Below, piece by piece: positions 1,952-51,481 of a DNA stretch of 64,000 nucleotides; positions within the stretch are counted from its first letter, which is position 1; each line of letters begins with the position of its first letter. Location: contig OY970292.1 in the NCBI GenBank assembly GCA_963716145.1, positions 332,951 through 396,950 of the forward strand, read 5' to 3'. A program made the position numbers and the translations under genes. The stretch is from Candidatus Levyibacteriota bacterium. Its GTDB lineage: Bacteria; Patescibacteriota; Microgenomatia; Levybacterales; UBA12049. Below the pieces are notes generated by a model. That model was given only the letters and a program-made list of their open reading frames with translations. It did not search any database and had not been told where the DNA came from.

Positions 1952-4900
1952 TCAAGAGGTATTAATATCTCTTCTTGCTGTTAGTTTTCTTAATCTCAAA
2001 CCCATCACCACTATCACAAGCCCCAGTACTCCAACAACCCCCAGTGTAACCGGTTCAAGCAAAGGGTTTCTCCTTTGTATCTTCACATTCAGTTCATATC
2101 TTTTAACATTGTCACTTGCTGCAAGAACCATTTTTTGTTCTCCTGTATCACCATTGTAGGCAATAATGACTGTGTGTTCGCCTTTTTCTACCTCTTTGAA
2201 TGTTGCTATACCTTTATCATTTGTCTTTGCTTGTCTTGGGGTAGAGTGGAGAGTAACCGAAGCCCCTCCAACCGGGTTATTCTCCTCATCTGTTACCTTT
2301 ACATCTACATCATAGGTCTTGTCCTGAGCGGAGTCGAAGGATTCTTTTTCCATCTGATTTTCTTTTGTTTTGCTGCTATCACACTTGATCTTTAGTTTCC
2401 AACCTACTTCCAGCAGAGAGGATGTTTTAAGCGTAGGGTAAGTGTCTTGATTAAGAGTTGCTATCTTTTTGTAGTCTTCTATTTTTCCCAGCTTTTCCTT
2501 AGCAATTGAGGAGAGGGAATCACCTTTCCTGACAGTGTAGTAGCTGCAGACTAAGCTTCCATCTCCTCCAGCTCCTGTCCCATCTCCCTCTTCATCAACA
2601 GGAGTTAAGCTTGATTGGGTTATCAGGTTACCGGTTGAATAGAATGGGAGAGTCTTGGCTGAGATCTGATTTGACCATTCTCCTGTGGCGCAGCCATTAC
2701 CTGCTCTTACTCTAAAGTAGTAGGTGGTTGAGGGGTCAAGGTTTTGGACTAGATAGGTTCTTGTTCCTTTCCCACCTATGTTGGAAGCAGCAAAGCTGTA
2801 TACTCCTGATTTGGTTCCGTATTCAAGTGTGTAGTGATCATATGGATCAGATGCATCGGTGAAGGTAAGAAGAATAGAACTCCCTCCTTTGGGAAGAGCT
2901 GAGTAGAGGTTAATAGGTATAGCTCCAACAGTGGTAGCTGTACAGACAGGTGAGTCTGTGGTTGATCGGGCAGGCTGAGTTTGGATATTGCATGAGGAGG
3001 GGTTAAAGCTCCAGTTGGTATTATTACCAGAGTCTATGCTATCACAAGTAGCTAGGATAACACTGTTGATATTGTGTGAATCCTGGACATCAAGGTATTG
3101 CATGTTACGTGGACCTTGAGGATCAATATTCCAGGCAGTACCAGGGGTTGAGGAACGCAGAGAGAGCTTGTTGCCCGAGTCTGTACCTCTGAGGGTGAGG
3201 GTGCCGAGGATTGTTTGGGTGGTACCTGAGGAGAAGGTGAGGGTTACCGGGGGTAGTTCTTGTCAGATTGTAGAAGGTGGTTGTATCATTGATGTGCTGA
3301 CCTATACCATCAAAAACAATTGTTCCATTATTGTGATTGAAAGTACCTCCGGTGTGATTAAAGTTTCCGCCCCCCCCTACAGTCATCGTGCCTGAAGGTG
3401 CGGTGAAACTACCTGCGGTAATATTAAAATTGTCAGTGAAATCCACCACTGTATAGTTTCCTAAATTTAATGTGGCTCCATCTACATTAAAACCACTTGT
3501 GGATACCAATCCAGTAAAACCAGATATAACTGCAGTAGTATTGAAATTGGATCCTCCCGCTGTGCTTCCAAGCGTCAGAGTACCGGTACCGGTTAATGTT
3601 CCGTTGAGTGTAATTCGGCCTGTTTGTGGATTATTTCCCAAAGGGAGCGTGCAATCTGCATTGACGGTTGAAAATCCATTATGAAGGTTTACTAAATTAA
3701 AAGTTGCATTATTACAACTCAAAGTTTGAACAGTTGTTCCATCAAACGTCACCGTCCCACCATTGGCATTGAAGGTACTACCTGAATCAGATATAAAGTT
3801 GGATGCGAAGGTTGCAGTGCCCTCTGGAGCCGTAAAGATAGCGCCTGAATTAAGGTTAAAGCCAGCATTTACATCAAATATAGTGTAGCTACCGAAATTG
3901 TAAGCACCATTAACAGTAAGAGCGTTCGAAACGAGGCCATTGAAACCCGAGAGAGCTCCTCCTGAATTTAGGGTAAGCGTAGTGATATTAGCCGTAAGTG
4001 TGCCACTTCCCGATAAAGTACCATTGAGCACCACATTCCCACCTGCTCCCACAGTAGGATTATTTCCCACAGGCAAATTACAATCACTGCTTATAGTTTT
4101 TGTCCCGGCAGGATTTGCAATAATGACAAAGTTGAAGACCGTATTATTACAGCTTGTAACACCGCCAGAGGTATCCAAAACAACTGTGCCGCCATTGGCA
4201 TTGAACGTAGTTCCGGAATTTATAGTGAATGTGCTCCCAAAGGTTGCAGTGCCCGACAGCGCCGTAAATACAGCCCCCGAACTAAGCGTAAATATGCCGT
4301 TCACATCAAACGTTGTATAACTGCCAAAATTATAATTGGCACCAGATAAGGTAAGTGCACCCGTTACCAAACCACTAAACCCTGATAAAGTTGAACCACT
4401 ATTAAGAGTTAATGCGTTTCCAGTTCCGGCTGTTCCCATAGTCAGTGTTCCAGAACCAGATAATGTGCCATTAAGCGTAAGATCTGCGTTGCTATCACTC
4501 CCTACTGTTGGATTATTGCCCAGAGGCAAGTTACAGGTGCTTCCAACTGTTTTAATAGTCCCTCCAGTATGCGCAAATGTAACTAAATTAAATGTAGTAT
4601 TATTGCAGCTCAGGGTAGCCGTTACTGCTCCATCAAATGTGATGGTCCCGCCATTGGCATTGAAGGTGGTGCCGGAATTGAGTGTAAAAGAACTGGCAAA
4701 GGTTGCAGTGCCCGACAGCGCCGTAAATACAGCTCCAGAGTTGAGTGTGAATGTTCCATTAATATCAAAAGTAGTGTAAGTGCCAAAATTATATGTAACG
4801 CTGCTAATCGTTACCTGTCCAGCAACCAGTCCACTAAATCCTGACAAGCTTGAACCACTGTTGAGCGTTAACAAGTTGGTTGTGGCTGTAGTCCCTATTG

Positions 4901-5591
4901 TTAGGGTACCAGTGCCCGACAAAGTACCACTTAGGGTAAGATCAGCATTTGCATCTGCACCAACAGTTGGATTATTTCCCAGAGGAAGGGAGCAGTTGCT
5001 ACTGACTGTTTTTGTGACATTCGTGGTATGCACAAAAGTTACAAGGTTAAATGTAACATTGTTACAACTTAGGGTAGCGCTTGCAGTCCCATCAAAAGTG
5101 AATGTCCCACTATTATGATTGAAAGTTGGTGACCCGGAGATAGTCATAGTATTTGATATTGTCGTTGAGACGCTAGATGCTGTAAATGTGCCTCCAGACA
5201 AAATAAAAATATTCAAATCCAGTGTTTGCCCCGCGGCTGTAAATGTGCCTCCCGCTTGTTGAAAAGTGGAAGTTGGAGTTAAAGATCTGGCCAATGTAAT
5301 AGTGCCAGAGTAAGTTGAGGCTATATCTATTGTGACTATTGTCCCACCAAAACCTGCATCAACAGTGCTATTCTTAGTTGAAGTAGAATTAAAAATCGCC
5401 GTGTCCGCTGAGGCAGGACAGACATCAGTAGTCCAGTTGGTACAATCTGACCAGTTATTGGTTGATCCTCCTCCATCCCATGTGAGAGAAGCAGCATAAG
5501 ATTTATTAAGGGGAGCGGAAAACAAAAAGAGAGCCAGAAGAATACAAACGGAAAAAAGAGAAATGATAAAGGAACTCAAACGGCGGTGCAT
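1952..5591 (-). CDS. Giant secreted cell-surface adhesin, ~1210 aa. N-terminal signal peptide; at least four ~148-aa Pmp-like beta-helical repeats (FxxN...GGT[IV]); FN3 domain; LysM domain; CarbopepD_reg/Ig-like domain; C-terminal TM anchor. The reading frame is interrupted by a 1-nt indel in a G5 run at 3249-3253. ORF-track pieces 3123..5591 and 1952..3103 are one gene.
   Basis: The 822-aa ORF ends in nonsense sequence (PHLLLRYHPNNPRHPHPQRY...). The alternate frame reads ...TLTFSSGTTQTILGTLTLRGTDSGNKLSLRSSTPGTAWNIDPQGPRNMQYLDVQDS..., continuing in frame into the 383-aa ORF. Repeats TFNANGGTITFDG / TFNHNSGTFTFDG recur every ~148 aa. TTYYFRVRAGNGCATGEWS marks the FN3 domain and YTVRKGDSLSSIAKEKLG the LysM domain. 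VKVTDEENNPVGGASVTLHSTPRQAKTNDKGIATF is a CarbopepD_reg-like domain. The C-terminus is LLEPVTLGVVGVLGLVIVVMGLRLRKLTARR. Confidence 0.7.
3280..5100. repeat. About four tandem ~445-bp repeats inside the adhesin gene, encoding the Pmp-like repeat units. They also explain the spurious + strand ORFs here.
   Basis: The protein repeats are near-identical 145-150-aa blocks: ...LSCNN.TFNLV....LPLGNNPTVG...LTLNSG..LSGF.GLV....NFG.YT.FD.N..F.L.SGA.FTA..GTATF...F...SGTTFNANGGT. Confidence 0.6.
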
Positions 5592-5668
5592 ATTTTAAAT
5601 AAGCAGTAACTAACATATAGTATGCTATTTTGAAGCAGAAAGTCAATGGAGAGGGTAGGAAGATTGAA

Positions 5669-6259
5669 TTATTTACTGGAGTTTCTCAAAGTAACCGAGG
5701 TTTGGAATGGAATTGAACCGGTAGCCTCAACTAAATTACCAGCGTTTTTAGAATCCAACGTGAAGCTAAAATTAATAGTTGGCGGATCGTCAGGACTAGC
5801 CTGAGAACATGTAAAAGAACACTGAGTTACAGTCACAGCATTTGTATCAACGAGTGAGGCCCCGTTTGAAGCGATAGTACCCGTTGAACCTGTAGAACAT
5901 ACAAAAGTAGTCTTACTGTTGTCCGAGAGAGACCTGATGGCAATAGGACCATCTACTGCAGAACAAGCAGAATCCAGACTCTTAGCGTACCTTACTTGTT
6001 TTACTATTTGAGATAGTGCGTTGTTGCCATTTTGCTTCAGACTCACCAATCTATCTGACTTACTGCTTGCACGAAGAGTCGCAAAAATAATCGATACAAT
6101 AACTGTTCCTGTTGCTGCGAACAATGCTACAATTACCACCAATTCTACCAGGGTAAAGCCCCGCGGGGAATTTCCAATTTGCAATCTCCAATTTCCAATC
6201 CGCTCTTTATTGGTTGATATTTGATATTTGAAATTTGATATTTGAAATTTGATATTCAT
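5669..6259 (-). CDS. Prepilin-type (class III signal) pseudopilin / minor pilin
   Basis: RGFTLVELVVIVALFAATG follows the G/FTLVE prepilin peptidase motif with Glu at +5. The true start is uncertain. The in-track ATG at 6259 puts a 14-bp tandem DNA repeat in the leader. An in-frame TTG at 6184 would give a short leader MQIGNSPRG|FTLVE. Confidence 0.7.
   Translation of the reverse strand: MNIKFQISNFKYQISTNKERIGNWRLQIGNSPRGFTLVELVVIVALFAATGTVIVSIIFATLRASSKSDRLVSLKQNGNNALSQIVKQVRYAKSLDSACSAVDGPIAIRSLSDNSKTTFVCSTGSTGTIASNGASLVDTNAVTVTQCSFTCSQASPDDPPTINFSFTLDSKNAGNLVEATGSIPFQTSVTLRNSSK
6216..6256. repeat. 14-bp tandem repeat (gatatttgaaattt x2, plus partial copies) at the 5' end or upstream of the pseudopilin gene
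   Basis: Read directly: ttgatatttgatatttgaaatttgatatttgaaatttgatattcat. Confidence 0.5.
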
Positions 6260-6708
6260 GGTCCTTGTACCGGATTAGCAGTGGATAGACAAGAGGTAAT
6301 TTGACTTTTATGACAAAAACTACCGCCAGAACATTTTCCATCACTCCAAGAAACTGTTGCTGTCGCTTTTGCTACGCTTGAAGCACAGCCGGGAGTTTGT
6401 TCAATTGAAACCGACCGGATAAAATTATCCACATTTTTAATTGTGCATGAGGGAGAAGAAGTAGGCAAAGTTGAGGCCCCTTTGCTCAAACAGAAATTTC
6501 CGCTATAGCCTGTAAAGGCTGCATAGTTATTATTTCTAGTATTGCGAGTAATCTCAATTCCCTCCTGGGCATACTGGGTAGCAAGGCTTTGATCCCTACC
6601 ATATCCGGCGTTACTCAAAGACGATGCAACAATTACAGCAATACCTGATAAGATAATACCAACTACGCTTAGTGCTAATAGTGATTCAATTAGTGTTTGA
6701 CCCTTCAT
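6256..6708 (-). CDS. Prepilin-type pseudopilin. Start re-set to MKGQTLIESLL. The ORF-track start at 6822 lies inside the upstream gene.
   Basis: MKGQTLIESLLALSVVGIILSGIAVI has the class III signal (G|QTLIE). An ATG at 6708 lies 5 nt downstream of the stop of the preceding pseudopilin gene. The C-terminal region is Cys-rich (disulfide D-region-like). Confidence 0.7.
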   Translation of the reverse strand: MKGQTLIESLLALSVVGIILSGIAVIVASSLSNAGYGRDQSLATQYAQEGIEITRNTRNNNYAAFTGYSGNFCLSKGASTLPTSSPSCTIKNVDNFIRSVSIEQTPGCASSVAKATATVSWSDGKCSGGSFCHKSQITSCLSTANPVQGP

Positions 6709-6712
6709 GCTT

Positions 6713-7165
6713 TTATGGTAAGGAAATGTTTCCAGTATTGTTAATAATAATTGACTTGGTTTTTCCATAACCGCTAATAGTGATTGTACCAGGAGCTGAA
6801 ACCGTACCTGTGGATACATCAAAAAGAACGCTTGTCAGACCGCTTCCAAAACTTACTTGCCCGGGTAGTTTTTTTTGAGTAATCAGATGATCACCTGCGC
6901 ATACTACATCAAGATGATAATCCTGACCCGAAGGGGTTATAACCACTTTATATCCATCGAGAGGATTGGTTCCGCAGACAGAAGGCTTAACCTGGGAAAT
7001 AGCTCTTGACCGGGCAATATTCAAAAGACTCGAAAACCCGGACATACCGGATCCAAACACCTGAGAACTATTGTATGAACTGAAAACCACAACACTCATC
7101 ATGGAAATTATGCCGATGAATGCAAAAACAATTAGAAGCTCCATAAGAGTAAACCCTTTTTTCAT
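6713..7165 (-). CDS. Prepilin-type pseudopilin / minor pilin
   Basis: MKKGFTLMELLIVFAFIGIISMMSVVVF has the canonical KGFTLxE leader-plus-helix. It overlaps its neighbours by 4 nt, suggesting translational coupling. Confidence 0.75.
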   Translation of the reverse strand: MKKGFTLMELLIVFAFIGIISMMSVVVFSSYNSSQVFGSGMSGFSSLLNIARSRAISQVKPSVCGTNPLDGYKVVITPSGQDYHLDVVCAGDHLITQKKLPGQVSFGSGLTSVLFDVSTGTVSAPGTITISGYGKTKSIIINNTGNISLP

Positions 7166-7581
7166 GGATTAGTAACAGTATAAGAAACCCCTGCTCCGCC
7201 GCAAACATCTACAGCGTCTTTTTGTAAATCAGCGGTATTTTCCAGACATGCAATAAGATTATAACCCGATGCGATGATCGTGTATGTATACGCAGCAGAT
7301 GTGGTGGGATCGCAGGGAATTGCTTTAATGTAGGTTGTTCCGGAGACAGTCAAGGCGCTACCACAGCTTGGAAGAGGAGATGCTGGATATGAACCCTGAT
7401 CTGACCGATGTAGCTCCAAAACAGCCTGTAACTTGGCAAGGTCTGTTTTTCTTTGAGTATCCCGGGCTTTTTTAATTTGAAATAAAGGATTTAAAGCAGT
7501 CATAGCAGCAATTGCTAACGCACCTATCAGTGCAATAACAACTAACATTTCAACCAATGTAAAGCCTTTTTTCATGATCAT
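7162..7581 (-). CDS. GspG/PulG-like major pseudopilin (type II secretion / T4P pseudopilin G family)
   Basis: MIMKKGFTLVEMLVVIALIGALAIAAMTALNP...KARDTQRKTDLAKLQAVLELHRSDQGSYP follows the T2SS-G family consensus, including the ARDT.R..DL..L..AL motif. Confidence 0.8.
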   Translation of the reverse strand: MIMKKGFTLVEMLVVIALIGALAIAAMTALNPLFQIKKARDTQRKTDLAKLQAVLELHRSDQGSYPASPLPSCGSALTVSGTTYIKAIPCDPTTSAAYTYTIIASGYNLIACLENTADLQKDAVDVCGGAGVSYTVTNP

Positions 7582-7603
7582 AATATATTATGATACATGT
7601 TTA

Positions 7604-8452
7604 TCACATATGTAAATAGACGAGGGCTTTTCCAACCAATAAATCTCCCCAAAACAAGCTAATTAAGGTTCCTGCAACCAGGAACGGGCCAAACGGTATA
7701 GTCGCACCTCTAATTTTTTTATGCTTTATTCCGAGTATTACCAAAGGAATTACCGCACCGCTTATTACTGCAATATAAAATCCGAGTACAACTTTTGGAT
7801 ATCCCAGAATGAATCCCATTAAAAATGCATATACCACATCCCCAAAGCCCATGCCTTTTCCGCGGGTTACTAGAAAAATAAACAAAAAAAACAGAAATAG
7901 GCCGACAGCGCTCAAAATATAATTGAAAAACATTATACCGGGAGTTGGCAATAATACTTGCCGTAAAACCACGGCCGACAATCCCAACGCAACAGCATTA
8001 AAGGGGATAATTCCAAATTTCAGATCCGTAAAGAAAATAATAATTAGAGTTGAGATTAAAAAAAGATAGTACAGCAGGAAAAAACTCAAAATATGCAATG
8101 AATTTACCGGAGCACCTGTTGATCCGCCCAAAACAAAATATGCAGAAAAAGCAAACAATAGACCGGTAATTAATTCAACTAGGGGATAATACAGGCCCAT
8201 TGCATGCCCGCAATACCTGCATTTCCCTTGGAGCATTACAAAAGAAATAATAGGGATAAGATCAATCAAAGATAAAACATGCTTACAACTGTCGCAATGC
8301 GACCTTCCTTTAAGAGAGCTTTCTTCGCTAGGCATCCTATCCACCAAAACATTTAAAAAACTGCCTATAAATAATCCTAATAAAAAAAATGAGATAATTA
8401 ATAAAGCAAGCATGTACTGAGCGTATCTAAAATAGGGGGAAAAAGCAATCAA
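7604..8452 (-). CDS. pilD: Prepilin peptidase PilD (A24 aspartic peptidase)
   Basis: N-terminal zinc-binding Cys tetrad CDSCKHVLSLIDLIPIISFVMLQGKCRYCGH. Polytopic membrane body with GMGFGDV (catalytic Asp region). Confidence 0.85.
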   Translation of the reverse strand: MIAFSPYFRYAQYMLALLIISFFLLGLFIGSFLNVLVDRMPSEESSLKGRSHCDSCKHVLSLIDLIPIISFVMLQGKCRYCGHAMGLYYPLVELITGLLFAFSAYFVLGGSTGAPVNSLHILSFFLLYYLFLISTLIIIFFTDLKFGIIPFNAVALGLSAVVLRQVLLPTPGIMFFNYILSAVGLFLFFLFIFLVTRGKGMGFGDVVYAFLMGFILGYPKVVLGFYIAVISGAVIPLVILGIKHKKIRGATIPFGPFLVAGTLISLFWGDLLVGKALVYLHM

Positions 8453-8468
8453 AAGTTATCAAATGTAC

Positions 8469-8924
8469 TTACGGGCAAACTGTTGTTGCTGTTGCAGCGG
8501 CGCATAATTTTCCGTTTGATGAATTATATAATGCTTTTACAAATGATGCTGAAGTGTATTTCTTGGATTTTAAAGTTCCGGTCATTGTAAAAGCTGTTGC
8601 TGTATAGGTTGGGGTATATGTATATCCGCTTGGGGCAGTTGGTATAGCTCTCAATTCACCTGAACTTACAATTGTCGCGGCAGTAGGATATGTTCCATTA
8701 TTTGAGGCTGCATATGCTTCTGCTGCCTTTGACATAAGAGTAAGGTCACTAAAAACCTTGGCATCATTTCCTGCGTTGATTTTATCAATCGGATCAATAG
8801 TTGCAATAAGACCAACAGCCAAAACTCCAAGAACTGCTATAACAACCAAAAGCTCAACAAGAGTAAAGCCCTTCGACTTGCTCAGGGCAAGTCCTTTTTG
8901 AAGTTTTTTAAATTGCTTTTGCAT
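8469..8924 (-). CDS. Major type IV pilin, copy 1 (PilA/PilE-like)
   Basis: Long basic leader MQKQFKKLQKGLALSKSKG|FTLVELLVVIAVLGVLAVGLIA. C-terminal Cys pair KLCAAATATTVCP (D-region disulfide). Near-identical to copy 2. Confidence 0.8.
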   Translation of the reverse strand: MQKQFKKLQKGLALSKSKGFTLVELLVVIAVLGVLAVGLIATIDPIDKINAGNDAKVFSDLTLMSKAAEAYAASNNGTYPTAATIVSSGELRAIPTAPSGYTYTPTYTATAFTMTGTLKSKKYTSASFVKALYNSSNGKLCAAATATTVCP

Positions 8925-8970
8925 ATCTATATTCAGTAGAACACATATAATAAATGCTTGTCAATGAGTA

Positions 8971-8998: not shown

Positions 8999-9023
8999 TT
9001 TATACATTTTTAACATTTTATGC

Positions 9024-11056: not shown

Positions 11057-11110
11057 AAAATTTTATTCCATATTTACTTTATCAGATTTGGGGACAAAAT
11101 TACAAAAGCC

Positions 11111-13874: not shown

Positions 13875-14765
13875 TTAGGCCCCAATAGTCTGAATAATAG
13901 CTAATTTTTCTTTCAGAAAAATACGCGCAAGTATTATTGTAGGTAAAGAAGACGCTCCGCTAAGAATGGCAACAACGCTTGTAAACGATGTGCTTGCATA
14001 TCCCAAGCTTATAGCTAAATAGGCAACGGCTTCACCTAACCCAATAAGCCATAAAAATTTCCACGCCCCCGGTTTAATATCTGTTAGATCTACTTTATGG
14101 AATCTTGAGATTATATAAGCAGCAATTGTCATAAATATAAACATCAAAAGCGAGTATATGGTCCAGTCTTTTCCTCCAGAAAAATTGTCCCAACCTAATG
14201 TCCATACTGTAGCAAGTGCTGTAGCTATTGCGATCTCCTTGACTCCTGGTGTGCCAACGATACGAATGCGTTTGGAACGCCACGCTGTGAGATCAAGATT
14301 AAGAAGTAGTACACCGCTAAAAATTAAGATCAATGCCGGCACTAAATTGGCTTTCAGCGTTTCTCCAAATACTAAAACCGATAATAATGCTACCCAACCG
14401 GTAAAAGAAGCAAAGATTGGGCTTAAAATCGCAACTTTTCCCTTTTCAAAGCCTTCGTAGCCAAAAAAATAAACAACTGCTTGGAGGCTTCCAAAAAAAA
14501 TAAGCCCTAGCCATTCCTGCAGGCTGGTGGGTAATGTAATAGAATTTTTAAATATGTATATATTGCCTAAAACTATAAAAAAAAGAATTATCGAACCAAG
14601 TACATGAGCCCATACCAAGCTAGAAATGGTTCCAATTTTATCAACTGCTTTTTTTGTTGCAAATTCCGAAAAACCCCAACCAAACATTCCTCCAACCCCG
14701 GCCGTAATTGCAATCAGTAATTCGTTCTGCATATTAATATTATGGGTACTTAAATACTCTGACAA
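13875..14765 (-). CDS. EamA/DMT-family transporter (10 TM)
   Basis: Two EamA-like halves with hydrophobic helices throughout. Confidence 0.65.
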   Translation of the reverse strand: MSEYLSTHNINMQNELLIAITAGVGGMFGWGFSEFATKKAVDKIGTISSLVWAHVLGSIILFFIVLGNIYIFKNSITLPTSLQEWLGLIFFGSLQAVVYFFGYEGFEKGKVAILSPIFASFTGWVALLSVLVFGETLKANLVPALILIFSGVLLLNLDLTAWRSKRIRIVGTPGVKEIAIATALATVWTLGWDNFSGGKDWTIYSLLMFIFMTIAAYIISRFHKVDLTDIKPGAWKFLWLIGLGEAVAYLAISLGYASTSFTSVVAILSGASSLPTIILARIFLKEKLAIIQTIGA

Positions 14766-16439: not shown

Positions 16440-17506
16440 TTACCCTATTAACCTCAACAACTCTCCCTCCCGTAAGGTGTAAGATTTGGCATTTTCAAGG
16501 GAAATTGTGCCGGTTCGCACAAGAGCCGCAAGAGATTCATCAAGAGTCGCCATACCCATATCTTTGGAGGTTTGGATAACAGAATCAATAAGGTGTGATT
16601 TTCCATCTCTTATATTGCTGGCAACTGCGGAGGTTCCCAGCATTATTTCAACAGCTGGAATTCTTCCTCCTCCAATCTTTGGCAAAAGTCTCTGGGAAAT
16701 AATTCCTTTAAGCGTTGCCGCAAGCTGAATCCTGACTTGAGACCTCTGATCCGAAGGAAATGAATCAACTATACGGTCTATGCTTTGAGCTGCGGAATTT
16801 GTGTGAAGGGTTGAGAAAACCAAGTGACCGGTTTCGGCAAGTGTAATAGCAGCCTGCATTGTCTCAGGATCCCGCATTTCTCCAACCAAAACAACATCAG
16901 GATCTTCCCGAAGAGATGATCTCAAGGCCAAACTCCAAGAGTGCGTATCTGTTCCCATTTCCCTTTGCGAGATAATACTACTGCCTTTTGGATAAACGAA
17001 CTCAATCGGGTCTTCAATCGTCAGAATATGTTCAGATCTGGTCATATTTATTTCATTTAAAATTGCTGCGAGCGTAGTTGATTTTCCATGCCCGGTGGGC
17101 CTGCGACAATAACAAAACCTTGTCTTAATCCCGAAAAAGTGTGGCAAATTTTAGGAAGACCCAGTTGCTCAATTGAACGGACACTAGGAGTTAAAAAACG
17201 CATTACCGCTGACACGGTTCCCCGCTGAAAATAAGCGTTCACCCTAAATCTTCCCAACTCCTCATCAGGAATTTCTGAAAAGCTAAATGAAAAATCCAGC
17301 TCTTTATTTGTCAGAAAAAGTTCTTTTTGTTCAGGGGTCAAAAGCGAAAAAACCATTGTCTCGATCTCAGCCGCTTTTAGCAAGGAGCTCGTTGTGAGAG
17401 TACGAAGCACTCCGTCAATACGGAAAGTCGGCGCAATACCAACCATCAAATGAAGATCCGATGCTTTATTTTTAACTGTAAGCGATAGCAATTCTTTAAT
17501 ATCCAT
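16440..17506 (-). CDS. pilT: Twitching-motility retraction ATPase PilT. The reading frame is interrupted by a 1-nt deletion at the Walker A box near 17090-17100. The ORF-track pieces 17057..17506 and 16440..17147 are one gene.
   Basis: N-terminus MDIKELLSLTVKNKASDLHLMVGIAPTFRIDGVLR. The expected VIVAGPTGHGKSTT reads as VIVAGPPGMENQ in frame 1 and PTGHGKSTTLAAILNEIN in frame 3. The rest is the canonical PilT C-terminus (…GHLVFSTLHTNSAAQSIDRIVD…). Confidence 0.8.
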
Positions 17507-20098: not shown

Positions 20099-21295
20099 CG
20101 CATACAGGATGCGGCCTCAGACTTTTGAAGAATTCGTCGGACAAGTGGACCTGGTCGGTAAAGATAAAATTCTTCGCAACATGCTGGAGAGCAAGCAGTT
20201 ATCTTCTATGATTTTCTGGGGCCTCCGGGATCCGGCAAAACAACTCTTGGTCATCTGATTGCAAAAGCAACAAATGCTGAATTTCATCATCTCTCAGCTG
20301 TTGAGGCGAGTAAGGCAGATCTTCGGGAAATTATCAAACTAGCTGAATCAGCACTGCAGAAGAAAAAACGTACTATCCTTTTTATTGATGAGATTCATAG
20401 ATGGAACAAATCTCAACAAGACGCTCTTCTTCCGCAGGTTGAGTCGGGTTTGATAACTTTAATCGGTGCGACTACTGAGAATCCATCATTTGAAGTAATC
20501 AGCGCTCTTTTATCCCGTTCGCGTGTTTTTGTCTTAAAAAGCCTTACTCCTGAGGACTTGGAGAAAATAATTGATAGTGCGCTGAAGGATAAGAAAAGGG
20601 GAGTGGGGTCTTCAAAGAAGACTATTGACCGAAAGGCCAAAGATTTATTAATCAGATTCTCAGGAGGTGATGCGAGAATAATGTTAAACGCCCTTGAAAT
20701 GGCTGTAACTACCTACAAAGAAAAGAAAATAACAGCGGAAATTATAAAAGAAATTTTTCAGACACGCTCCGCTGGTCTTTATGACAAAAAGGCTGACGAG
20801 CATTACAACATTATCTCAGCATTTATCAAATCTATGCGCGGATCAGATGTAGACGCCTCTCTTTATTATCTGGTCAGGATGCTTGAGAATGGCGAGGATC
20901 CCAAATTTATTGCAAGAAGGATGATAATTTTCGCCTCAGAAGATATAGGAATGGCGGATAGGGGAGCACTCATCCAGGCCAATGAAGCTTTTGAAGCAGT
21001 TAACAAAATCGGCATGCCCGAATCGCAATTAATTCTTGCACATATTGTAATTTATCTTGCGGGTGCCAAAAAATCCAGAGCAGTTCCAAATGCGCTGGGC
21101 AAAGCCAAACAAGCAGTCTATGATCTCCCAAATGAACCGATTCCATTACATTTGCGGAATGCGCCAACCAAACTGATGAAAAATCTGGGTTACGGAAAGC
21201 AGTACGAATGGTCAGAAAAATACGTGGGCCTCAAAGAGAAGCTTTCATTTCTGCCGGAGAAATTAAAAGGAAAAAAGTTTTATGAACCTAATTAA
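20099..21295 (+). CDS. rarA: Replication-associated recombination protein A (RarA/MgsA AAA+ ATPase). The reading frame is interrupted by a 1-nt deletion in a C-run near 20221-20225.
   Basis: [32 protein letters not shown]...MIFWG followed by [11 protein letters not shown]. With one extra C the Walker A reads [19 protein letters not shown], continuous with the ORF-track piece 20450..21295 (…[24 protein letters not shown]…). Confidence 0.75.
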
Positions 21296-28352: not shown

Positions 28353-30892
28353 ATGGCACAAATAGGTAAATTACAAGAAACAAATATCTCGTCTGAGATG
28401 AAGAAATCGTATCTGAATTATGCGATGTCTGTCATCGTCGCGCGCGCCCTTCCCGATGTGCGTGATGGACTCAAGCCCGTTCACCGCAGAATTCTCTACG
28501 CGATGAATGAAATGGGCCTTGGCCCGACAGGTAAATTCCTCAAATCCGCCCGTATCGTCGGTGAGACCATGGGAAAATACCATCCGCATGGAAATATAGC
28601 AATTTATGATTCTTTGGTGCGTCTTGCGCAGGATTTTTCGATGCGCTATCCGCTCATTCTAGGGCAGGGGAATTTCGGATCAATTGATGGTGATCCACCG
28701 GCAGCGGATCGTTATACCGAAGCCAAGCTCCAACATATCACTATGGAGATGCTTTATGATTTGGACAAAGAGACAGTTGATTTCGGCCCAATTATGACGG
28801 CTCTTTCCAGGAACCGCTCTATCTTCCGGCCAAACTCCCAAACCTACTTTTGATGGGGGCTGAGGGAATTGCCGTAGGTATGGCAACCAAAATCCCGCCT
28901 CACAATCTCGGAGAAGTAATTGATGCAATCACATACCTTATTGGTAAATCCAAAATAGAGGTGTTAAAAGAGAACGAACCAAAGGCTGTTGATCCCAAAG
29001 ACCCCAACGCGAAAGCAATCCCTATTCAAAGTTCTGCTGTTTCTTTACACACCGAAGTCACAATTGATGAACTGCTTGAATTCATCAAAGGACCGGACTT
29101 CCCAACAGCCGGCGCGATTTATGACCTGAGTGAGATCAAAAACGCCTACATCACGGGGCGTGGAAAAATAATAATCCGCGGAAAAGCTGAAATTGAAGAT
29201 ATAGGACAGGGTAAATCTGCAATTATCATCACTGAACTTCCATATCAGGTAAATAAAGCGCTGCTTATCGCCAGAATTGCCGATCTTGCCAAAGAGAAAA
29301 AGATTGAGGGAATTTCTGACCTTCGGGATGAGTCCGACAGACGGGGAATGCGGATTTATGTTGAGCTGAAAAGAGACGCTTTCCCCAAAAAAGTTCTCAA
29401 TAATTTATTTAAACACACGGCGATGCAGACAAGCTTTCCTGTCAACATGGTTGCTTTGGTAAATGGTACACCTCAGACTTTAAACCTCAAATTGATACTC
29501 GAAGAATACATCAAGCACCGCTACATTGTGGTCCGCAAGAGATCGGAATTTGAACTCAGACAAGCAAAAGCAAGGCTTCATATTTTGGAAGGGCTGAAAA
29601 TCGCGGTCGATCACATAGACGCGGTAATAGCTACGATCCGGGCATCCAAAGATCAGGAAGATGCAAAGCAAAACTTGATGACCAAATTCAAGCTTTCAGA
29701 ACTTCAATCCGTTGCCATTCTTGATTTGCAGCTTCGCCGACTTGCAGCGCTTGAGAGGCAGAAAATTGAAGACGAATTATTGATGATAAAAGAAACGATT
29801 GCGTATTTGGAGGATTTACTCGCACATTCTGAAAAGATTCTTGAAGTTATAAAAGGGGAAATTGTAAAACTGAAGGAAAAATACGCAGATCCGAGACGTA
29901 CCAAAGTCTACAAAGGAAAAGTAGGGGAGTTCTCAGAAGAAGATTTGATTGCAAATGAACCAACAGTTATAACTCTTACCAATACCGGATATATCAAACG
30001 CCAATCCTTAACGTCATTTCACACTCAGCACAGAGGAGGAAAAGGAATAACCGGTATGAATGTAAAAGACGAGGATGGTATTGCTCATATCCGGTCCGCA
30101 CAGACCCATGACAACATAATTTTCTTCACCAACAAAGGAAAGGCTTATCAGCTCCGCGCTTTTGAAATTGCTGAATCATCAAGGACAAGCAAAGGCTCAG
30201 CTGTGGTCAACTTGCTTAACATTGAACAGGGAGAAAAAGTTGAATCATTCCTGGTTCTTGATAAAACACTTAAATCCGGAAACATTTTCCTGACAACCAG
30301 AAATGGAACTGTTAAGAAAAGCAAATTGTCTGAATTTGAGAACATCAGAAAAAATGGCATGATCGCGATAAAACTTGACAAGGGAGACGAACTCGTCTGG
30401 AGCAATATAACCGATGGCAAAAACGAAGTGCTGATTGTTACCCGCCACGGAAAAGCAATTAAGTTTGAAGAGTCAGCAGTGCGCCCAATGGGTCGGGCAA
30501 CCAGGGGAGTGCGTGGAATCAAAATTGACTCAACAGATCAAGTGATAGGTATGGCAGTTGTATGTAAAGAAGACAAACTCAACTTCCTGGCAATCATGGA
30601 AAACGGACTTGGTAAGAAAACAGCAGTTGGTCAGTTTCCTCTCCAGGGCAGAGGTGGACAGGGAGTGAAAGTTGCCAAAGTGACACCAAAGACAGGACAA
30701 GTTGTTATTGCCCAGATTGTTCCAGACAATTGTGAGGAAGTAATAATCACCTCCAAAAAGGGACAAATTGTAAAACTTACTACCGAATCAATTCCCAAAC
30801 TCTCAAGAGACACACAGGGCGTGATCCTGATGCGCTTCTCAGATTCTAACGACAAAGTCGCCTCCGCAACTTGTATAGAAAAAGCTTCTTAA
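28353..30892 (+). CDS. gyrA: DNA gyrase subunit A. The reading frame is interrupted by a 1-nt deletion (AAA to AA) at ~28788-28791. ORF-track pieces 28353..28853 and 28850..30892 are one gene.
   Basis: Frame 0 reads ...[17 protein letters not shown]...*. Frame 2 across the same bases reads [40 protein letters not shown], which is the conserved GyrA PNYDGS...GIAVGMAT block. Active-site region and C-terminal beta-pinwheel repeats lie downstream. Confidence 0.9.
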
Positions 30893-31226: not shown

Positions 31227-31822
31227 TCCCTGGGGAATTTCGATGATTACTGTTTCAAAGCCGAGACTTTTAAATAATGTTGTCAATTGATTTCTTGCAT
31301 TTTTTGAAGCCTCATTTAGAATCCCACCTTTACAAGCCGCGTCTTTGATAACTTTTTCTGCTTCGCCCCGAGCCTGAGACTCGAGATTGTTGTCACCTTT
31401 TGTAAGTAGGCCTTGTTTGCGGTCATAAACTCTCGTCTGATCACTATCCAATTTGGCGACCAATATTTCGGCGCTGGCATAGTGACTTTTAGAGTATTGT
31501 TTGAAACATTAATATCTTTCTCGCTTACTTTTCCTAGATCAAAACCTGCGATTACAGTTCCATGAGCAATTAGCAAAATCCTGTCTCCATAAAGAAATTG
31601 CTTAAATGTATTTCCCGATGTCCCGACATCAATTATTTTTTCAATTGTAAAAGACGACGTCTCCAAGCGGTTGAGCGAGCGGATTTGCTTTATAACTGTT
31701 TGTGAACTCAAATTGACGGTGTATTTTTCCTTCGGTCCAGCAAATTGCTTAAAGACCAAAAATACTCCAAAAAGTATTAGAGCGAAAATAATAATTGTTA
31801 TGATAGGCCGAATACTTTTCAT
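31218..31822 (-). CDS. DUF4230-like membrane-anchored protein. The reading frame is interrupted by a 1-nt deletion in an A-run near 31468. ORF-track pieces 31316..31822 and 31218..31463 are one gene.
   Basis: N-terminal TM (IITIIIFALILFGVFLVF). ...HGTVIAGFDLGKV is DUF4230-like. Frame continuity is restored by ccgaaa(a)tattggtc, giving ...MPAPKILVAKLDSDQTRVYDRKQGLL. Confidence 0.5.
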
Positions 31823-37725: not shown

Positions 37726-38546
37726 ATGGATTTTAATCAAAAATTAGACTCAACAATTCAAAAAAACAACTCTCTCCTTTGCGTCGGACTTGATCCGGAT
37801 TTTGAAAAACTTCCCGAATTTATTAAAAAGAAAGAAAACCCACAATTTGAATTTAATAAAGCTATTATTGACAGCACAAACGATTTAGCCTGCATTTATA
37901 AAAAAAATCCTGCGTTTTATGAAGCAAAAGGGGATGGGGGAGTGAGGGAGCTGAAAATGACCTGTGACTACATCAGGAAAACCTATCCTAATATCCCAGT
38001 TCTTGTTGATGCAAAGAGAGGGGATATAGGAAATTCTAATTACGGGTATGTTCAGTATGCATTTGATTATTTGCAAGCTGATGCGATGACTGTCATGCCA
38101 TATCTGGGAATAGAGTCACTTTCTCCTTATTTTGAAAGGGAGGGAAAGGGAATAGTTGTCGGCTGTCATTCATCAAATCCTGGAGCTGCAGAATTTCAGG
38201 AGTTATTAATTGACGGCAAACCGCTTTATGAAATAGTTGCAGAAGAGCTGATAAAGCAACATGGTGATAATCCCAACTGTATGATATTTATGGGAGCAAC
38301 TTACCCCGAACAGCTTACAAGTATAAGAAAAGTTATCGGCGATATGACTATTTTGGCCCAGGCGTCGGAGCACAGGGCGCAAGTGTGGAGATGTTTGTCA
38401 AATCAGGTATGAATTCCAAAAATGCAGGACTAATAATTAATGCGTCCAGAAGTGTTATATTCGCATCAACTGGTGAAGATTTTGCCGAGAAAGCACGGGA
38501 AGAAGCAACAAAACTTAGAGACGAAATCAATAAATATCGTGTATAA
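37726..38546 (+). CDS. pyrF: Orotidine-5'-phosphate decarboxylase, type 2. The reading frame is interrupted by a 1-nt deletion in a C-run near 38357-38359.
   Basis: MDFNQKLDSTIQKNNSLLCVGLDPD is the type-2 PyrF N-terminus. The ORF ends ILAQASEHRAQVWRC*. The alternate frame reads ...PGVGAQGASVEMFVKSGMNSKNAGLIINASRSVIFASTGEDFAEKAREEATKLRDEINKYRV*, the expected C-terminus. Confidence 0.75.
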
Positions 38547-40108: not shown

Positions 40109-41208
40109 ATGAAAAAATATAAGAAGCCCGGGCAATGGAAAGCATATCTTGCAATTACCTGGTATGCCTTCAGGGCGCAAACCAGAAATCCAGCAACATT
40201 TGCGTTTGGATTTATCTTCCCAGTTGTATTCATAAGTATTTTTGGATTAATTGGCGGCAGCGGACAAACGCTCAATGTCGGAATTCCAAAAAGTACACCT
40301 GAAAATCAATTGCTAAAAACAATTGAAAAACAAAAATTCTTAAAAATAGAAAAATCAGATCCGCAATCCCTGGATAAAAAACTTAAGCAAGGAAGACTCT
40401 CCGGAATTGTGGAAATTGATGAGATCCAAAATACTGAAGGCACAAAATATACGGTAAATATACTTACATCAACCGCCAATGCAATTGAAGCACAATCTCT
40501 AACTTCAGCAATCCGCGGCATAGTTGATCAAACCAACTTGCAGTTAGCGGGAGTTAAAAACCCGCCAATTGCTTTGTCTCAAAAAGAAGTATCTGGCCGC
40601 CAATTCCGATACATCGATTTCGCGCTTCCGGGACAAATAGGGTTCTCTCTTCTTTCAACTGCGATTTTCGGGACAGTATTTGGCTTAATCTATTTGAAAA
40701 AAGCATTGATACTCAAACGGATGTTCGCGACACCAACCAAACCACTAACCATTTTACTAGGGCAGGGACCAGCAGACTTGTGATTGCACTTGTACAAACT
40801 CTCCTCATTCTTGCAATCGGGGTAATTGCATTTAAATTCTATCTTCCCCATGGATTCATCACATTTCTAGAGCTTCTTCTTGTTTCAGCAATCGGACTAA
40901 TCGCCTTCCTGGGGTTTGGATATTTCTTTGCAGGACTGGCAAATGACGAGAACTCTGCGGGTCCGATGGTGAACTTAGTTACGCTTCCGCAATTTTTATT
41001 AAGTGGAACATTTTTCCCAACAGACAGTTTGCCTACCTGGCTTCAGCCCATTGCCAACAACCTCCCTCTTTCTTATTTCAATATCGCGGTCCGCAAAATC
41101 ACAACGGAAGGCGGGCATCTACCCGACACAACTCCATATCTAATAGGGCTTATTATCTGGGGAGCTGCCATGTATCTGCTTGCCGCCCGCACTTTCAGGT
41201 GGGAATAA
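40109..41208 (+). CDS. ABC-2 family permease. The reading frame is interrupted by a 1-nt deletion near 40750-40780. ORF-track pieces 40109..40783 and 40780..41208 are one gene.
   Basis: The 224-aa plus 142-aa pieces sum to the usual ~366-aa 6-TM ABC-2 permease. The second piece has no independent start context (GTG inside a hydrophobic run). The frame of piece 2 stays open upstream through ...RAGTSRLVIALVQ. Confidence 0.65.
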
Positions 41209-44589: not shown

Positions 44590-44639
44590 TGTTCCAAATA
44601 ATTCTTTGATGAAATAACTGCCGCGAAAACACTCTTCTC

Positions 44640-45110
44640 CACCCATAAAATAGCTGAGGGGAGGCAAGATTTATACCTAGCTTCGATTTAGCCTCGAATT
44701 TCCAACCTATAGTAGGGGAGTGCATGGTGAATGAGGGCATGGGTAAGCCGGCAACTAATAGGGAAATTAGCAACCAAGTTTAAGATAACTAGTTGTTAAA
44801 TATAAACAAATAAAGTGATAATTTGTGACAGTTGAGGACTCCTCCCCTAGGCTTTTGAGGCTGATCCATGTCGTAAAAGTATTATTGTGCGACATACACA
44901 CTATTATCTTCTACCGCCTTGAAATGCTCCAAAATGTTTTTTGGCGTTGAGATGGCAATCGGGAAACACATACTTTAACTTTATGCTCTGATGGACCCTT
45001 TCCCGGAAAGTTTATTAAAAGTAATAGTTAATAAATTTTTTACCTACTCCTCCATATAAGAGACGAGATGACAGAAGGTCTACCGCAATCCATAAACATT
45101 AGCGCTAAGT
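44640..45110 (+). ncRNA. Candidate structured non-coding RNA in a 940-bp convergent intergenic region. It may be a degenerate RNase P RNA. Strand and boundaries are uncertain.
   Basis: No ORF of 60 aa or more on any frame in 44774-45529, flanked by two converging gene ends. There is a locally GC-richer island. GAGGGcauGGGUAAGCCGGCAACUAAUAGGGAAAUUAGCAACC (44733-44775) resembles the bacterial RNase P P4/CR-I block GAGGGGAGGAAAGUCCGGGCUCCAUAGGGCAGGGUGCCAGG. GAGGGGAGG (44656-44664) can pair with CCUCCCCU (44841-44848). Confidence 0.25.
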
Positions 45111-45529
45111 GGTTACAGTTAATTCTATAAACTGGCCGTTATTCCTCAATCAGACTACCTCTCTTTCGTAATTAAAAATGCATTTCATTTAGATTGTTAA
45201 ATCAATCCAATCATTACATTTTAGCCTCGAAAACATTAAAAAAGCATTTTCGTATTATTTTTATTTGAATGGTCTATTTTTCCCCCAGAAGAGTGAAGAG
45301 GCATTAATCCTTAAGTTTATGACTGTAATATAATATACGTGACATGTACTTCTGAAGCACGCGCTAATGAAGAGGATTTTTACGCTATAAGATATATTTG
45401 TGCCTGTGAAAACTGACCTCTGTGAAAAGTTATCCACATTACTATATCAAACTATATCATTTTATTATAGGACTTATATAAGATATCTCTTTTGTGACTC
45501 CCCTCTTCCCTGTTCTGTAAGACTCAAAA

Positions 45530-46381
45530 TTATTTTCCCCAAGGAGTAAATAAAATTAATACAAAAAATATTATGCAACCAACCCAAACATATTCCCACA
45601 TAATTCCTTTAAAGAGCCGTCTCTCAAACCAGATATGGGAAAGCCCTACTATCGCATAAAAAAATCCTGTCAGGAAAAGTGCAATAAAAGTCGGGCTACT
45701 CGGCCAGAACCACAACAAAATACTCGCTTCAATCAAGCATACGGTCAAAATTGCTGTCCAAATTAATAGTGGTTTATTAATCTTTTGAAGGGTATATGTC
45801 CATAAAGAATGATATATGAGAAAAAAGCTGTAAATCAGAACAAGTATTATGACTATTAAAAGATTTGTATGAAGAGTAAAAACGATATTTGTTAAGAAAA
45901 AATAGGACAAGAGAGTCGTAACAAAAGAAACAATCCGTGCTCCCGATAACAAAGTTATTGTCCTGGTCGAAGAGACAGCCAATATATTTTGACTAAGAAA
46001 AACCGAATATACTCCAAATGCGTAAATTATGCTCAGGAGAAGCCGGAAGACAAAGGAAGAAGGAGAAAGAAAATAGAACATTCCAAAACTTAAGCTATAA
46101 AAAAAAGGCAATATAAACGCCTCGCTAGTATGTGTCTCCTTTAAATCCCGATATATTGCCCAATAGAGAAAAAGGCCTGTTAAAATAGACAACAATATGG
46201 GAACAAAAATACCCCCTTTTCCAAATTGGTTCTCAGTTAAAAATAACCCAATTGATAAAAATAATGTTCCGATTACAAACTTCTGTCTTTTGTCAATTAA
46301 GAAAGAAAAGTTCCTTCTCCCCTTTTTGGTTCTAGTCAAAAGCCTATTTGCTTTTGCATTTTGCAGCTCCTCATTATTCAC
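45530..46381 (-). CDS. Polytopic integral membrane protein (8-9 TM), unknown function. GTG start overlapping the yebC stop.
   Basis: Continuous hydrophobic helices. No catalytic motif recognised. Confidence 0.5.
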   Translation of the reverse strand: MNNEELQNAKANRLLTRTKKGRRNFSFLIDKRQKFVIGTLFLSIGLFLTENQFGKGGIFVPILLSILTGLFLYWAIYRDLKETHTSEAFILPFFYSLSFGMFYFLSPSSFVFRLLLSIIYAFGVYSVFLSQNILAVSSTRTITLLSGARIVSFVTTLLSYFFLTNIVFTLHTNLLIVIILVLIYSFFLIYHSLWTYTLQKINKPLLIWTAILTVCLIEASILLWFWPSSPTFIALFLTGFFYAIVGLSHIWFERRLFKGIMWEYVWVGCIIFFVLILFTPWGK

Positions 46382-50214: not shown

Positions 50215-50223
50215 GCAATTCAG

Positions 50224-51481
50224 TGCTTAATTTTAACTGCCCATATTACTCCCACGATTAAAAGGCTTACTCCAATTCCTACTATAACCACGCCGACTCC
50301 AATTAAATCAGAAAGACCCCCCACGATAATTATAGGAAGAAGAGAAAGGCCCCGATTATACTATTTAAAAATCCGTATATTTTACCGCGAATTTCCTCTG
50401 TAGTTTTTTCTTGAAGAATTGTATTGGCAGGAACAAAAACAAAAGAGTTTGCAACTCCAAGAACAAAGGCAAGAAAAACCATAATATGTAAAATGTTTAT
50501 TTCAACAACATGTGGCAGATAATCATTCAGCGCATGAACAAATCCTCTGGATGCGACTTTGGATCCATATGGCAAAAGCATCATAGCAACTCCTGAAATA
50601 AATATACCGGATGTTATCAATTTTTCTTTAATATGGCTATGAAATATTTTAACTATAAGAGTGGCTCCTATAACCATACCCAGAGCAGCCGGAGCGGCAA
50701 AAAGAAGTGGAAAATCCTCTATGGGAATTTTCAATATTTGACTTGCGTATCCCGGAGCAATAGTAGCTATAATTAAAATTAAAATTTGGGAAAGTGCGAG
50801 TAGAAAAAGTGAACGGGAAATTTGTTTTGTTCTTGACATTAAAGACAATGTATATTTTATATCTTTAAATATTTCTGGTTTTTCCTTAACTGTTTTTAGC
50901 ATGGTTGTACTTTTTATATCTATAAGTGAAATAAATCCGGCCCTTACTAGTAACATTCCTGCAAGTAAAATTAGCGTTCCTTCCGGCTTTAAAAAAATGA
51001 TGACAGGACCTGATAGAACATAAGCTATAAGAATTGATGCAAATACGGCCATGCCAAAAAGTGCATTGGCAGATAGCAGATTTTTTTCTTTCACAACTAA
51101 TGGTACCATGGGCGTTTCAGCCGGGATAAAAAATTGAACGAATACGCTAACAGTAAGAGATATGACGTAAATCATAAAAATATTATGCAATAAAAACACC
51201 AAAGCAATCATTAGAATAGCCCTAAACGTATTTGTTAAAATTAATACCTTTTTTTTGTCCCAACGGTCGACATAAACTCCCGCAATAGAACCAAAAAGAA
51301 TTGCCGGTAACGTAAAAGACAATACAACTCCTGATACTGCAGTATTTGAATGCGTAATTTTAAAAACTATAAGAACTAAAAAAAAGTTAAAAAGATGCGT
51401 TGGTATTTGAGTAAAGATTTCTCCAATCCAGAGAAAAAGAAAAGCTCTCTCAGAGAGCGCGGCAAATGTACTATTTTTCAT
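50224..51481 (-). CDS. MFS transporter. The reading frame is interrupted by a 1-nt deletion in a G/C run near 50340. The true C-terminus extends to ~50224.
   Basis: The ORF-track protein ends ...NSIIGAFLFFL* after TM11. The -1 frame continues as ...LPIIIVGGLSDLIGVGVVIVGIGVSLLIVGVIWAVKIKH*, a twelfth TM helix. Confidence 0.65.

Follow-up and report, generated by a model that had tools for sequence, protein, structure and literature searches.

The 64,000-nucleotide stretch of DNA analysed here (the window) belongs to the genome of an uncultured Candidatus Levyibacteriota bacterium, available as a single contig of 1,142,061 bp (NCBI/ENA), and several of its genes, including gyrA, are interrupted by shifts of reading frame. 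The question raised by this locus is whether these interruptions were present in the DNA of the organism or were introduced when it was sequenced and assembled. A first-pass annotation had reported eight such disruptions, all of which were recovered by three-frame translation at or within ~10 nt of where they had been placed. Its expectation of further indels, so far unnoticed, in other ORFs was also borne out, by two additional breaks: one at 13878 in a gene for an EamA-family transporter, the other at 52189 in a gene for an M1 aminopeptidase. Hence, 10 of the ~63 genes in the window (16%), gyrA among them, contain a frame break. Every break consists of one single-base indel, and in-frame stops and second lesions are absent. 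The same −1 shift is needed at 9 of the 10 breaks, and relatives possess intact single genes wherever a site could be compared. The density of these indels (~1 per 6.4 kb) corresponds to a consensus quality of ~Q38, and this value is typical of a long-read-only consensus. In view of the single lesions and the intact relatives, the ten breaks are very probably sequencing or assembly indels in a long-read consensus and not mutations of the organism, and the same preference for indels over pseudogenes in the first-pass annotation stands as the best explanation.

Genes interrupted by single-base indels

Among the interrupted genes is gyrA (28353–30892, + strand), which lacks one base within GGCCCAA at 28785..28791 and encodes a protein of 846 aa upon repair. 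Three-frame translation places the switch of frames at VDFGP|NYDGS, and the gene is already split in the public record into fragments of 166 aa and 679 aa. The 120 full-length homologues of GyrA have a best identity of 96%, and all of those read show ETVDFGPNYDGS. The best homologues are from the Logan assemblies L081 and L082 (96% identity in aa, only 79% in DNA), and DNA alignment with both of these contains a single 1-nt gap; the best GyrA from JGI is only 90% identical, and the relatives recovered by a scan of genome contigs have a GyrB at most 83% identical to that of the window. The earlier description of the lesion as AAA reduced to AA is possible but not unique, since loss of a base at GG^CCC, CCC^ or AA^ gives the same protein.

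The DUF4230 gene (31218–31822, − strand) is similarly short of one base at 31466..31471, and its repaired product is 201 aa long. Pfam matches to model positions 1–85 and 78–148 in the two pieces become a single match to positions 1–148 of 148 (132 bits). In alignment with L081 and L082 the gap falls in CC-|GAA, where the relatives read PAPEILVAKLD, which most likely means that a CCN proline codon has lost its third base; loss from the adjacent A-run, as had been suggested, is compatible with the protein but is likewise not the only solution. Both gyrA and the DUF4230 gene are single ORFs in the relatives. Downstream of its break, gyrA has a dN of 0.044 relative to L081, equal to that of the adjoining intact gyrB (0.045), and the downstream part of the DUF4230 gene has a dN of 0.06. 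Hence, selection on these downstream parts appears not to have been relaxed, with the qualification that synonymous sites are saturated in this comparison and very recent real mutations would escape it.

Two further genes are broken within the codons of their Walker A motifs. In pilT (16440–17506, − strand), one base is missing at GGGCC (17097..17101) and the frames switch inside VAGP|TGHGKSTT; the repaired protein of 355 aa has a contiguous T2SSE match (12–281), and the relative L003 has a single ORF of 363 aa that matches both pieces. In rarA (mgsA; 20091–21295, + strand), one base is missing at GGGGCC (20218..20223) and the frames switch in IFWG|PPGSGKT; the repaired protein of 401 aa matches RuvB_N/AAA, AAA_assoc_2 and MgsA_C, and single ORFs are present in L001 (412 aa) and L003 (402 aa). 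The gene pyrF (37726–38546, + strand) lacks a base at GGCCC (38355..38359), and the −1 frame brings back the motif PGVGAQG, giving a repaired protein of 273 aa whose OMPdecase match (2–215 of 221) spans the junction.

The remaining deletions are located in genes for three membrane proteins and a peptidase. The ABC-2 permease (40109–41208, + strand) lacks one base at 40757..40768, which is placed only to within CTAGGGCAGGGA and not to a single base; the frames switch between ILLG.G and TSRLVIALVQ, and the repaired protein of 366 aa has an ABC2_membrane_3 match to positions 3–346 of 347. The break in the MFS transporter (50220–51481, − strand), at GGCCCC (50348..50353), removes the last transmembrane helix, and the repaired protein of 420 aa aligns unbroken over the junction, to approximately residue 410–419, with nearly all of the best 150 representatives. 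The two breaks that were absent from the earlier list are both near gene ends. In the EamA-family transporter (13837–14732 as repaired, − strand), one base is missing at GGCCCC (13878..13883) and the last 13 residues are cut; the −1 frame continues with LIIIFGIIFLSLS, a typical EamA C-terminal helix, and repair increases the Pfam score from 69.5 to 77.3 bits; support for this break is moderate. In the M1 aminopeptidase (~52081–54647, − strand), one base is missing at GGCCC (52189..52193) and the last ~32 residues are replaced by PSEQ and a stop codon; the −1 frame reads AERTIKQVLEKILSNDEWLRRDYENIKQFL, and repair extends the ERAP1_C match from 5–304 to 5–316 of 318 (256.8 to 272.8 bits).

The only break of a different kind is found in the gene for an adhesin-like surface protein (1952–5591, − strand), where a G5 run at 3249..3253 (C5 on the coding strand) is one base too long or else two bases too short. 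As assembled, the gene consists of ORFs of 822 aa and 383 aa; removal of one G, or addition of two, produces an ORF of 1,212 aa that encodes a signal peptide and, at the C terminus, a membrane anchor, and addition of one base fails. The earlier generalization that every case is a 1-nt deletion restored by one added base is therefore valid for the other seven listed sites but not for this gene. The homologues P0141, P0167 and P0221 cover the junction module in a single frame, and another homologue (P0140, 65% identity) reaches upstream of the annotated ATG at 3103.

Several other suspects were cleared. The overlap of 6256–6822 with 6713–7165 is due to a TTG start that makes the ORF too long, with the pilin methylation motif beginning at residue 38, and 11392–12219 and 11111–11386 are two distinct genes. 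Near the 3′ ends of pilD, pilC, dnaB, rarA and a phosphoribosyltransferase gene, the reading frame continues unbroken through the GGCC sites. When the 3′ ends of all genes were scanned for extensions in alternative frames, only those of the EamA and M1 genes looked protein-like. An ORF-free stretch of 940 bp (44590–45530) contains no Rfam matches, notable repeats or terminators.

Sequence context and probable origin of the breaks

The first-pass annotation had placed each break at a mononucleotide run and had attributed the breaks to homopolymer-error-prone reads in an unpolished assembly. The former statement is weakly true, as all eight of the listed breaks are at runs of at least 3 bases, against a null expectation of 0.58 per site (P = 0.012). 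The association is much stronger for G/C runs of at least 3 bases (7 of these 8 breaks; P = 7e-6) and for the 5-mer GGGCC/GGCCC (5 of 8; P about 2e-10), and 5 of the 7 deletions are at GG..CC junctions, compared with 28 of 914 G/C runs (P = 5e-7). The 5-mer occurs at 28 sites, or 0.2% of the sequence, and carries 7 of the 10 breaks, including the two new ones, which were revealed by checking motif sites near gene ends; the exceptions are those in the adhesin, DUF4230 and ABC-2 genes. The other 21 sites (e.g., in dnaB, pilD and gyrB) are read through in frame. The runs that are hit consist of 2–5 bases of G/C, whereas none of the 198 coding A/T runs of 6–8 bases (64 of at least 7 bases, 24 of 8 bases) is broken, in comparison to 7 of the 28 GGGCC/GGCCC sites (Fisher P = 2e-7). 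A length-driven homopolymer process, as supposed in the earlier attribution, does not fit these observations, because the long A/T runs of a genome with a GC content of 38.5% would be the first to be hit and even the longest of them are intact; the errors are specific to a G/C context.

Based on the above, the error process would drop one base in short G/C runs, chiefly where a G-run abuts a C-run (GGGCC/GGCCC, i.e., GGCC plus an extra G or C), would spare A/T runs of up to 8 bases, and would have added a base once, in the G5 run of the adhesin gene. Gene callers would then split the affected genes into two ORFs or clip their ends. Systematic miscalling at these G-run/C-run sites is the most likely cause, and modification of the native DNA may underlie it; a methylase of GGCC or GGGCCC type would fit, the platform and the modification both being inferred here. 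Pfam scans of all ORFs of at least 80 aa in the window identified no methyltransferase domain. The window contains no GGGCCC, and an original GGGCCC would be compatible with each of the seven motif sites, but we retain the view that every error was originally of this (ApaI-type) form as a possibility only: relatives have 1.3 such sites per 64 kb, and seven would be approximately five times denser (P = 4e-4), although this number agrees with the Markov expectation of the window after site correction (~5.6). A GGNCC sequence with its central base lost is also compatible, as relatives have GGTCC in gyrA and GGACC in rarA.

The breaks resemble several known types of error. Long-read assemblies are known to contain indels that fragment genes (PMC12007338), and as in ONT and PacBio data, conserved genes of a single-contig genome are here divided into adjacent ORFs at ~1 per 6–8 kb and are recognized by truncated proteins in comparison with homologues (PMC12007338; PMC6785717); however, classic descriptions stress long homopolymers, whereas here A/T runs of 6–8 bases are untouched and short G/C runs are hit. 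Consensus errors of ONT data cluster at methylation motifs and homopolymers, and taxa outside the basecaller training data are most affected (PMC6591954). For two P. aeruginosa isolates, the residual R10.4.1 errors were "nearly all at GGCC motifs", with 46 discordant positions among the 1,716 GGCC positions of low quality, of a total of 70,459 GGCC (PMC12345217). With such motif-linked errors (Dcm CCWGG, and GGCC in R10.4.1) the window shares a recurring short context with a GGCC core and an error at only a fraction of motif instances (7 of 28 here). However, the published GGCC errors are mainly G-to-A substitutions, for which methylation at GGCC could not be shown (PMC12345217), whereas the errors here are one-base deletions. 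In PacBio assemblies of a high-GC genome, G/C homopolymers of 4–10 bp came out exactly 1 bp too short (PMC11649196), which agrees with the present deletions in direction and base type; the presumed originals here are 3–5 bp long, and the specificity for G-run/C-run junctions is not described for PacBio.

Biological readings of the breaks

Of the readings in which frameshifts exist in the organism, one concerns the adhesin gene alone, where slipped-strand mispairing in poly-G would switch a surface protein off. This gene contains the sole insertion-type break, its G5 is the longest G run among the sites, and genes for surface proteins are the classic setting of contingency loci. However, phase-variable tracts are usually at least 7 bases long and a G5 tract slips rarely, the window holds 34 G/C runs of at least 5 bases, and nine other one-base errors in the same assembly make an error the simpler reading for this gene as well; we consider real phase variation very improbable.

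It is very unlikely that the breaks are genuine recent pseudogenes of a lineage in gene decay. Genome reduction and dependence on a host are features of CPR bacteria, the genes rarA, pilT and those for the transporters, the DUF4230 protein, the adhesin and the M1 peptidase are individually dispensable, and the saturation of dS leaves room for very recent events. Frameshift-interrupted genes are indeed a feature shared with the pseudogenes of reductive genomes, but the mixed and accumulating lesions and elevated dN of the latter are not found: each gene has one lesion, there are no nonsense mutations or larger deletions, the downstream parts are conserved like intact neighbours, and the essential gyrA is affected in the same way as other genes. 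Real slippage would also prefer the A/T runs of 7–8 bases, none of which is broken, and breaks in 16% of genes, with 7 of 10 on a 5-mer covering 0.2% of the sequence, do not form a known spectrum of spontaneous mutation.

There is only a very slim chance that GG(G)CC(C) sites are truly shortened in the DNA, whether by site-specific one-base deletion at GGGCCC-like sequences in this CPR lineage or with routine −1 decoding by the organism; expression of gyrA and nine further genes would then proceed from frameshifted templates. Programmed recoding, by −1 ribosomal frameshifting or by transcriptional slippage at GGCCC-type sites, can practically be dismissed: the −1 shift is common to 9 of the 10 breaks and a sequence context to seven of them, but there is no X_XXY_YYZ slippery heptamer at the junctions (one located upstream in the MFS gene leads directly into a stop), transcriptional slippage is supported by tracts of ~8 or more A/T, far above the 2–5 bases of the break runs, relatives normally share a programmed frameshift whereas every relative examined here uses one frame, and the 21 other GGGCC/GGCCC sites are decoded in frame. 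An alternative genetic code was rejected, as the pieces are in different frames with no in-frame stops separating them.

The breaks as sequencing indels, in contrast to the above readings, are isolated, corrected by a one-base repair that gives a full-length, family-typical protein at all ten sites (with contiguous Pfam matches where these were scanned), free of secondary lesions and of signs of relaxed selection while including an essential gene, and recurrent in a specific sequence context.

Significance for the genome record

None of the ten breaks is to be taken as a loss of function, and the caution already expressed for pilT, the adhesin and the transporter follows from the indel explanation. 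The pattern of indels is an ordinary one without biological meaning, and the value of the finding is practical rather than biological. The concentration of breaks at GGGCC/GGCCC provides a cheap, targeted check of the remaining genome, viz. inspection of each such 5-mer, and it is a hint of possible modification of the native DNA at a GGCC-type motif. If the rate in the window holds, ~16% of the genes in this public 1.14-Mb CPR genome would be split or clipped in annotation, which would distort gene counts, completeness estimates and pseudogene statistics for the lineage, as well as its metabolic reconstruction (pyrF, transporters) and inferences regarding pilus retraction (pilT).

Frame breaks in ten genes and in the deposited record

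Our analyses have identified frame breaks, viz. one-base indels that shift the frame of a gene, in 10 of about 63 genes, nine of them with a base missing and one with a base extra. Eight of these genes (viz. those for an adhesin, PilT, RarA, GyrA, a DUF4230 protein, PyrF, an ABC-2 permease and an MFS transporter) had been listed by the first-pass annotation, and three-frame translation reveals a frame switch at every listed place. The observation of these breaks is real because, in addition to the frame switches, intact ORFs from related genomes give matches in a pair of neighbouring frames for rarA (relatives L001 and L003), gyrA (L001–L003) and pilT (L003). All 120 GyrA homologues are full length, with ETVDFGPNYDGS across the junction in all those read, and in two short-read (Logan) contigs gyrA is uninterrupted at 846 aa, as is a DUF4230 gene of 202 aa; the DNA alignments of these genes with the window each contain a single 1-nt gap. 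One-base repair likewise leads to full-length proteins with Pfam matches that are contiguous across the junction, viz. DUF4230 (1–148 of 148), ABC2_membrane_3 in the ABC-2 permease (3–346 of 347; the indel is placed only to the interval 40757–40768), OMPdecase in PyrF (2–215 of 221), T2SSE in PilT (12–281) and the complete RarA architecture, and almost all of the 150 top representatives of the MFS transporter give an unbroken alignment with the repaired protein as far as about residue 413 of 420.

The anticipation that other ORFs might hide undetected indels was borne out by two more breaks, both close to gene 3′ ends and both on a GGGCC/GGCCC motif. For the EamA transporter (GGCCCC at 13878, − strand) there is modest evidence, viz. 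a typical last helix in the −1 frame and a Pfam score that rises from 69.5 to 77.3 bits after repair. In the M1 aminopeptidase (GGCCC at 52189, − strand) the −1 frame gives AERTIKQVLEKILSNDEWL..., and repair extends the ERAP1_C match from 5–304 to 5–316 of 318 positions, with a gain of 16 bits. No further split genes were found in Pfam scans of all window ORFs of at least 80 aa, or by tblastn with relatives over 15–33 kb; short truncations at gene ends could have escaped notice where no family match reveals them.

A public protein collection has exact copies of the window's GyrB and of both GyrA pieces (166 and 679 aa), assigned to one NCBI/ENA contig of 1,142,061 bp; therefore the frame breaks belong to the deposited record, where the pieces are called as separate proteins. 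Among species representatives the best match of this GyrB is 83% identical, to MAGs labelled Candidatus Levyibacteriota.

The adhesin-like gene and other features of the window

The claim that every break is a 1-nt deletion leading into the −1 frame does not extend to the adhesin, where the change is opposite and one added base fails to restore the frame. Removal of one G from its G5 run (3249–3253), or the addition of two, yields a 1,212-aa protein in which four repeated modules and fn3, LysM and CarboxypepD_reg domains are accompanied by a signal peptide and a C-terminal anchor. In three homologues (P0141, P0167 and P0221) a single frame runs through the junction module, and the closest homologue, P0140, reaches upstream of the annotated ATG; therefore the adhesin is one gene (1952–5591, − strand) with an extra base in the window. 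Among homologues of its C-terminal fn3-LysM-CarboxypepD_reg part (P0140, P0145 and P0150 included), most are separate proteins of 300–420 aa, each with its own signal peptide; in the window adhesin and P0140 a repeat-rich N-terminal region is joined to this part, and the family seems to exist both fused and unfused. The gene lies in a large type IV pilus locus (959–19322, − strand) that also encodes a PilX-like protein, the prepilin peptidase PilD, PilC, PilT, PilB and five or six pilin-like proteins with N-terminal methylation motifs, with a GAF histidine kinase and a response regulator interspersed.

The 64 kb contain roughly 63 genes, with 38.5% GC and about 93% coding sequence. The sole RNA gene found in them is a tRNA-Leu(CAA) (54809–54894, + strand). 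Because the mechanically extended TTG start of the opposite-strand M1 peptidase ORF runs into this tRNA gene, the true start of the peptidase is downstream, probably the ATG at 54647. The gene at 32867–34474 (+ strand) encodes argininosuccinate synthase (N and C domains) with a C-terminal MGS-like domain (residues 432–518 of 535), which looks like a domain fusion. Between the trehalase and membrane-protein genes, about 940 bp (44590–45530), unusually long for a 93% coding genome, are devoid of ORFs of at least 60 aa on both strands. Rfam gives no match for this gap even with E values up to 1, and the gap lacks terminator-like sites, notable repeats and promoter-like sites above shuffled expectation; possible readings are an undescribed RNA, a decayed gene or, with a tyrosine recombinase gene at 42183–43118, a mobile-element remnant.

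The Logan assemblies with the best GyrA homologues, L081 and L082, share synteny with the window that stops near 24.2 and 32.7 kb. Over 24246–32746 they are 96% identical in GyrA protein and only about 79% identical in DNA, with saturated synonymous sites (pS about 0.7), and this clade is marked by very strong purifying selection, deep synonymous divergence and rapid rearrangement.

Sequence context of the breaks

The breaks had been described as lying at or next to mononucleotide runs. Runs of at least 3 are indeed found at all eight of the originally listed sites, but this is barely informative, as the null expectation is 0.58 per site (P = 0.012). At the AA of gyrA and the A-run of the DUF4230 gene the break is present, but its exact assignment is not unique. 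No break falls on an A/T run of at least 5, yet there are 198 A/T runs of at least 6 in coding sequence, 64 of at least 7 and 24 of 8. Runs of at least 3 G or C occur at 7 of the eight listed sites (P = 7e-6), and GGGCC/GGCCC at 5 of them, vs. only 28 such motif sites in the window (P = 2e-10). Junctions of a G-run with a C-run account for 5 of the 7 listed deletions vs. 28 of 914 G/C runs (P = 5e-7); none of the seven falls on the 67 mirror-image CC..GG junctions. When EamA and M1 are included, 7 of 28 motif sites are broken vs. 0 of 198 long A/T runs (Fisher P = 2e-7), and the remaining 21, e.g. in dnaB, pilD and gyrB, are read through in frame. Hence, these errors depend on a GGCC-type G/C context and not on homopolymer length.

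GGGCCC is absent from the window vs. 2.4–3.2 occurrences expected from composition (relatives have 1.3 per 64 kb), and GGCC is under-represented (77 vs. 194 for CCGG). An original GGGCCC could underlie all seven broken motif sites, as could GGGGCC/GGCCCC or GGNCC; at break positions relatives have GGTCC (gyrA) and GGACC (rarA).

Origin of the breaks

The breaks are very probably an assembly artefact, and the earlier conclusion that they are sequencing or assembly indels rather than pseudogenes stands, with one lesion per gene, conserved downstream parts and gyrA among the genes hit. We regard this as a strong inference rather than a demonstration, as it draws on the assembled sequence and on relatives of which the nearest are 79% identical in DNA. 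Every lesion is a one-base indel, exactly one per gene, and three-frame translation detects no in-frame stops in the broken genes. Relative to L081, gyrA, an essential gene, has a dN of 0.028 upstream of its break and 0.044 downstream, vs. 0.045 for the intact adjoining gyrB (synonymous sites are saturated), and in the DUF4230 gene conservation is higher downstream (0.06) than upstream (0.18). The breaks affect 16% of the genes, favour a 5-mer that makes up 0.2% of the sequence and spare every long A/T tract, a spectrum unlike that of spontaneous mutation that does resemble systematic consensus error.

Phase variation is conceivable for the G5 tract of the adhesin alone, although contingency tracts are typically longer. 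Within the reach of these tests, programmed recoding is excluded: the junctions lack slippery heptamers, transcriptional slippage would require longer runs and the orthologues are in frame everywhere.

For the assembly artefact there are known counterparts. Long-read assemblies are known for indels that fragment genes (PMC12007338, PMC6785717), and nanopore consensus errors cluster at homopolymers and at methylation motifs absent from basecaller training (PMC6591954). In R10.4.1 data for two P. aeruginosa isolates residual errors were "nearly all at GGCC motifs", with a quality drop at only a fraction of sites and mostly as G-to-A substitutions (PMC12345217), and in PacBio assemblies G/C homopolymers have been found to lack exactly 1 bp (PMC11649196). 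A single 1.14-Mb contig for a CPR genome points to long-read assembly. The attribution to an assembly that is unpolished and homopolymer-error-prone in the classical sense does not match the pattern of correct long A/T runs, short G/C runs one base short and a GGCC core; a long-read consensus that is modern or polished and has context-specific residual error does match it. The sequencing platform, and DNA modification as the possible cause, we infer; the window contains no methyltransferase gene. As an ordinary assembly artefact, these breaks would be without biological significance.
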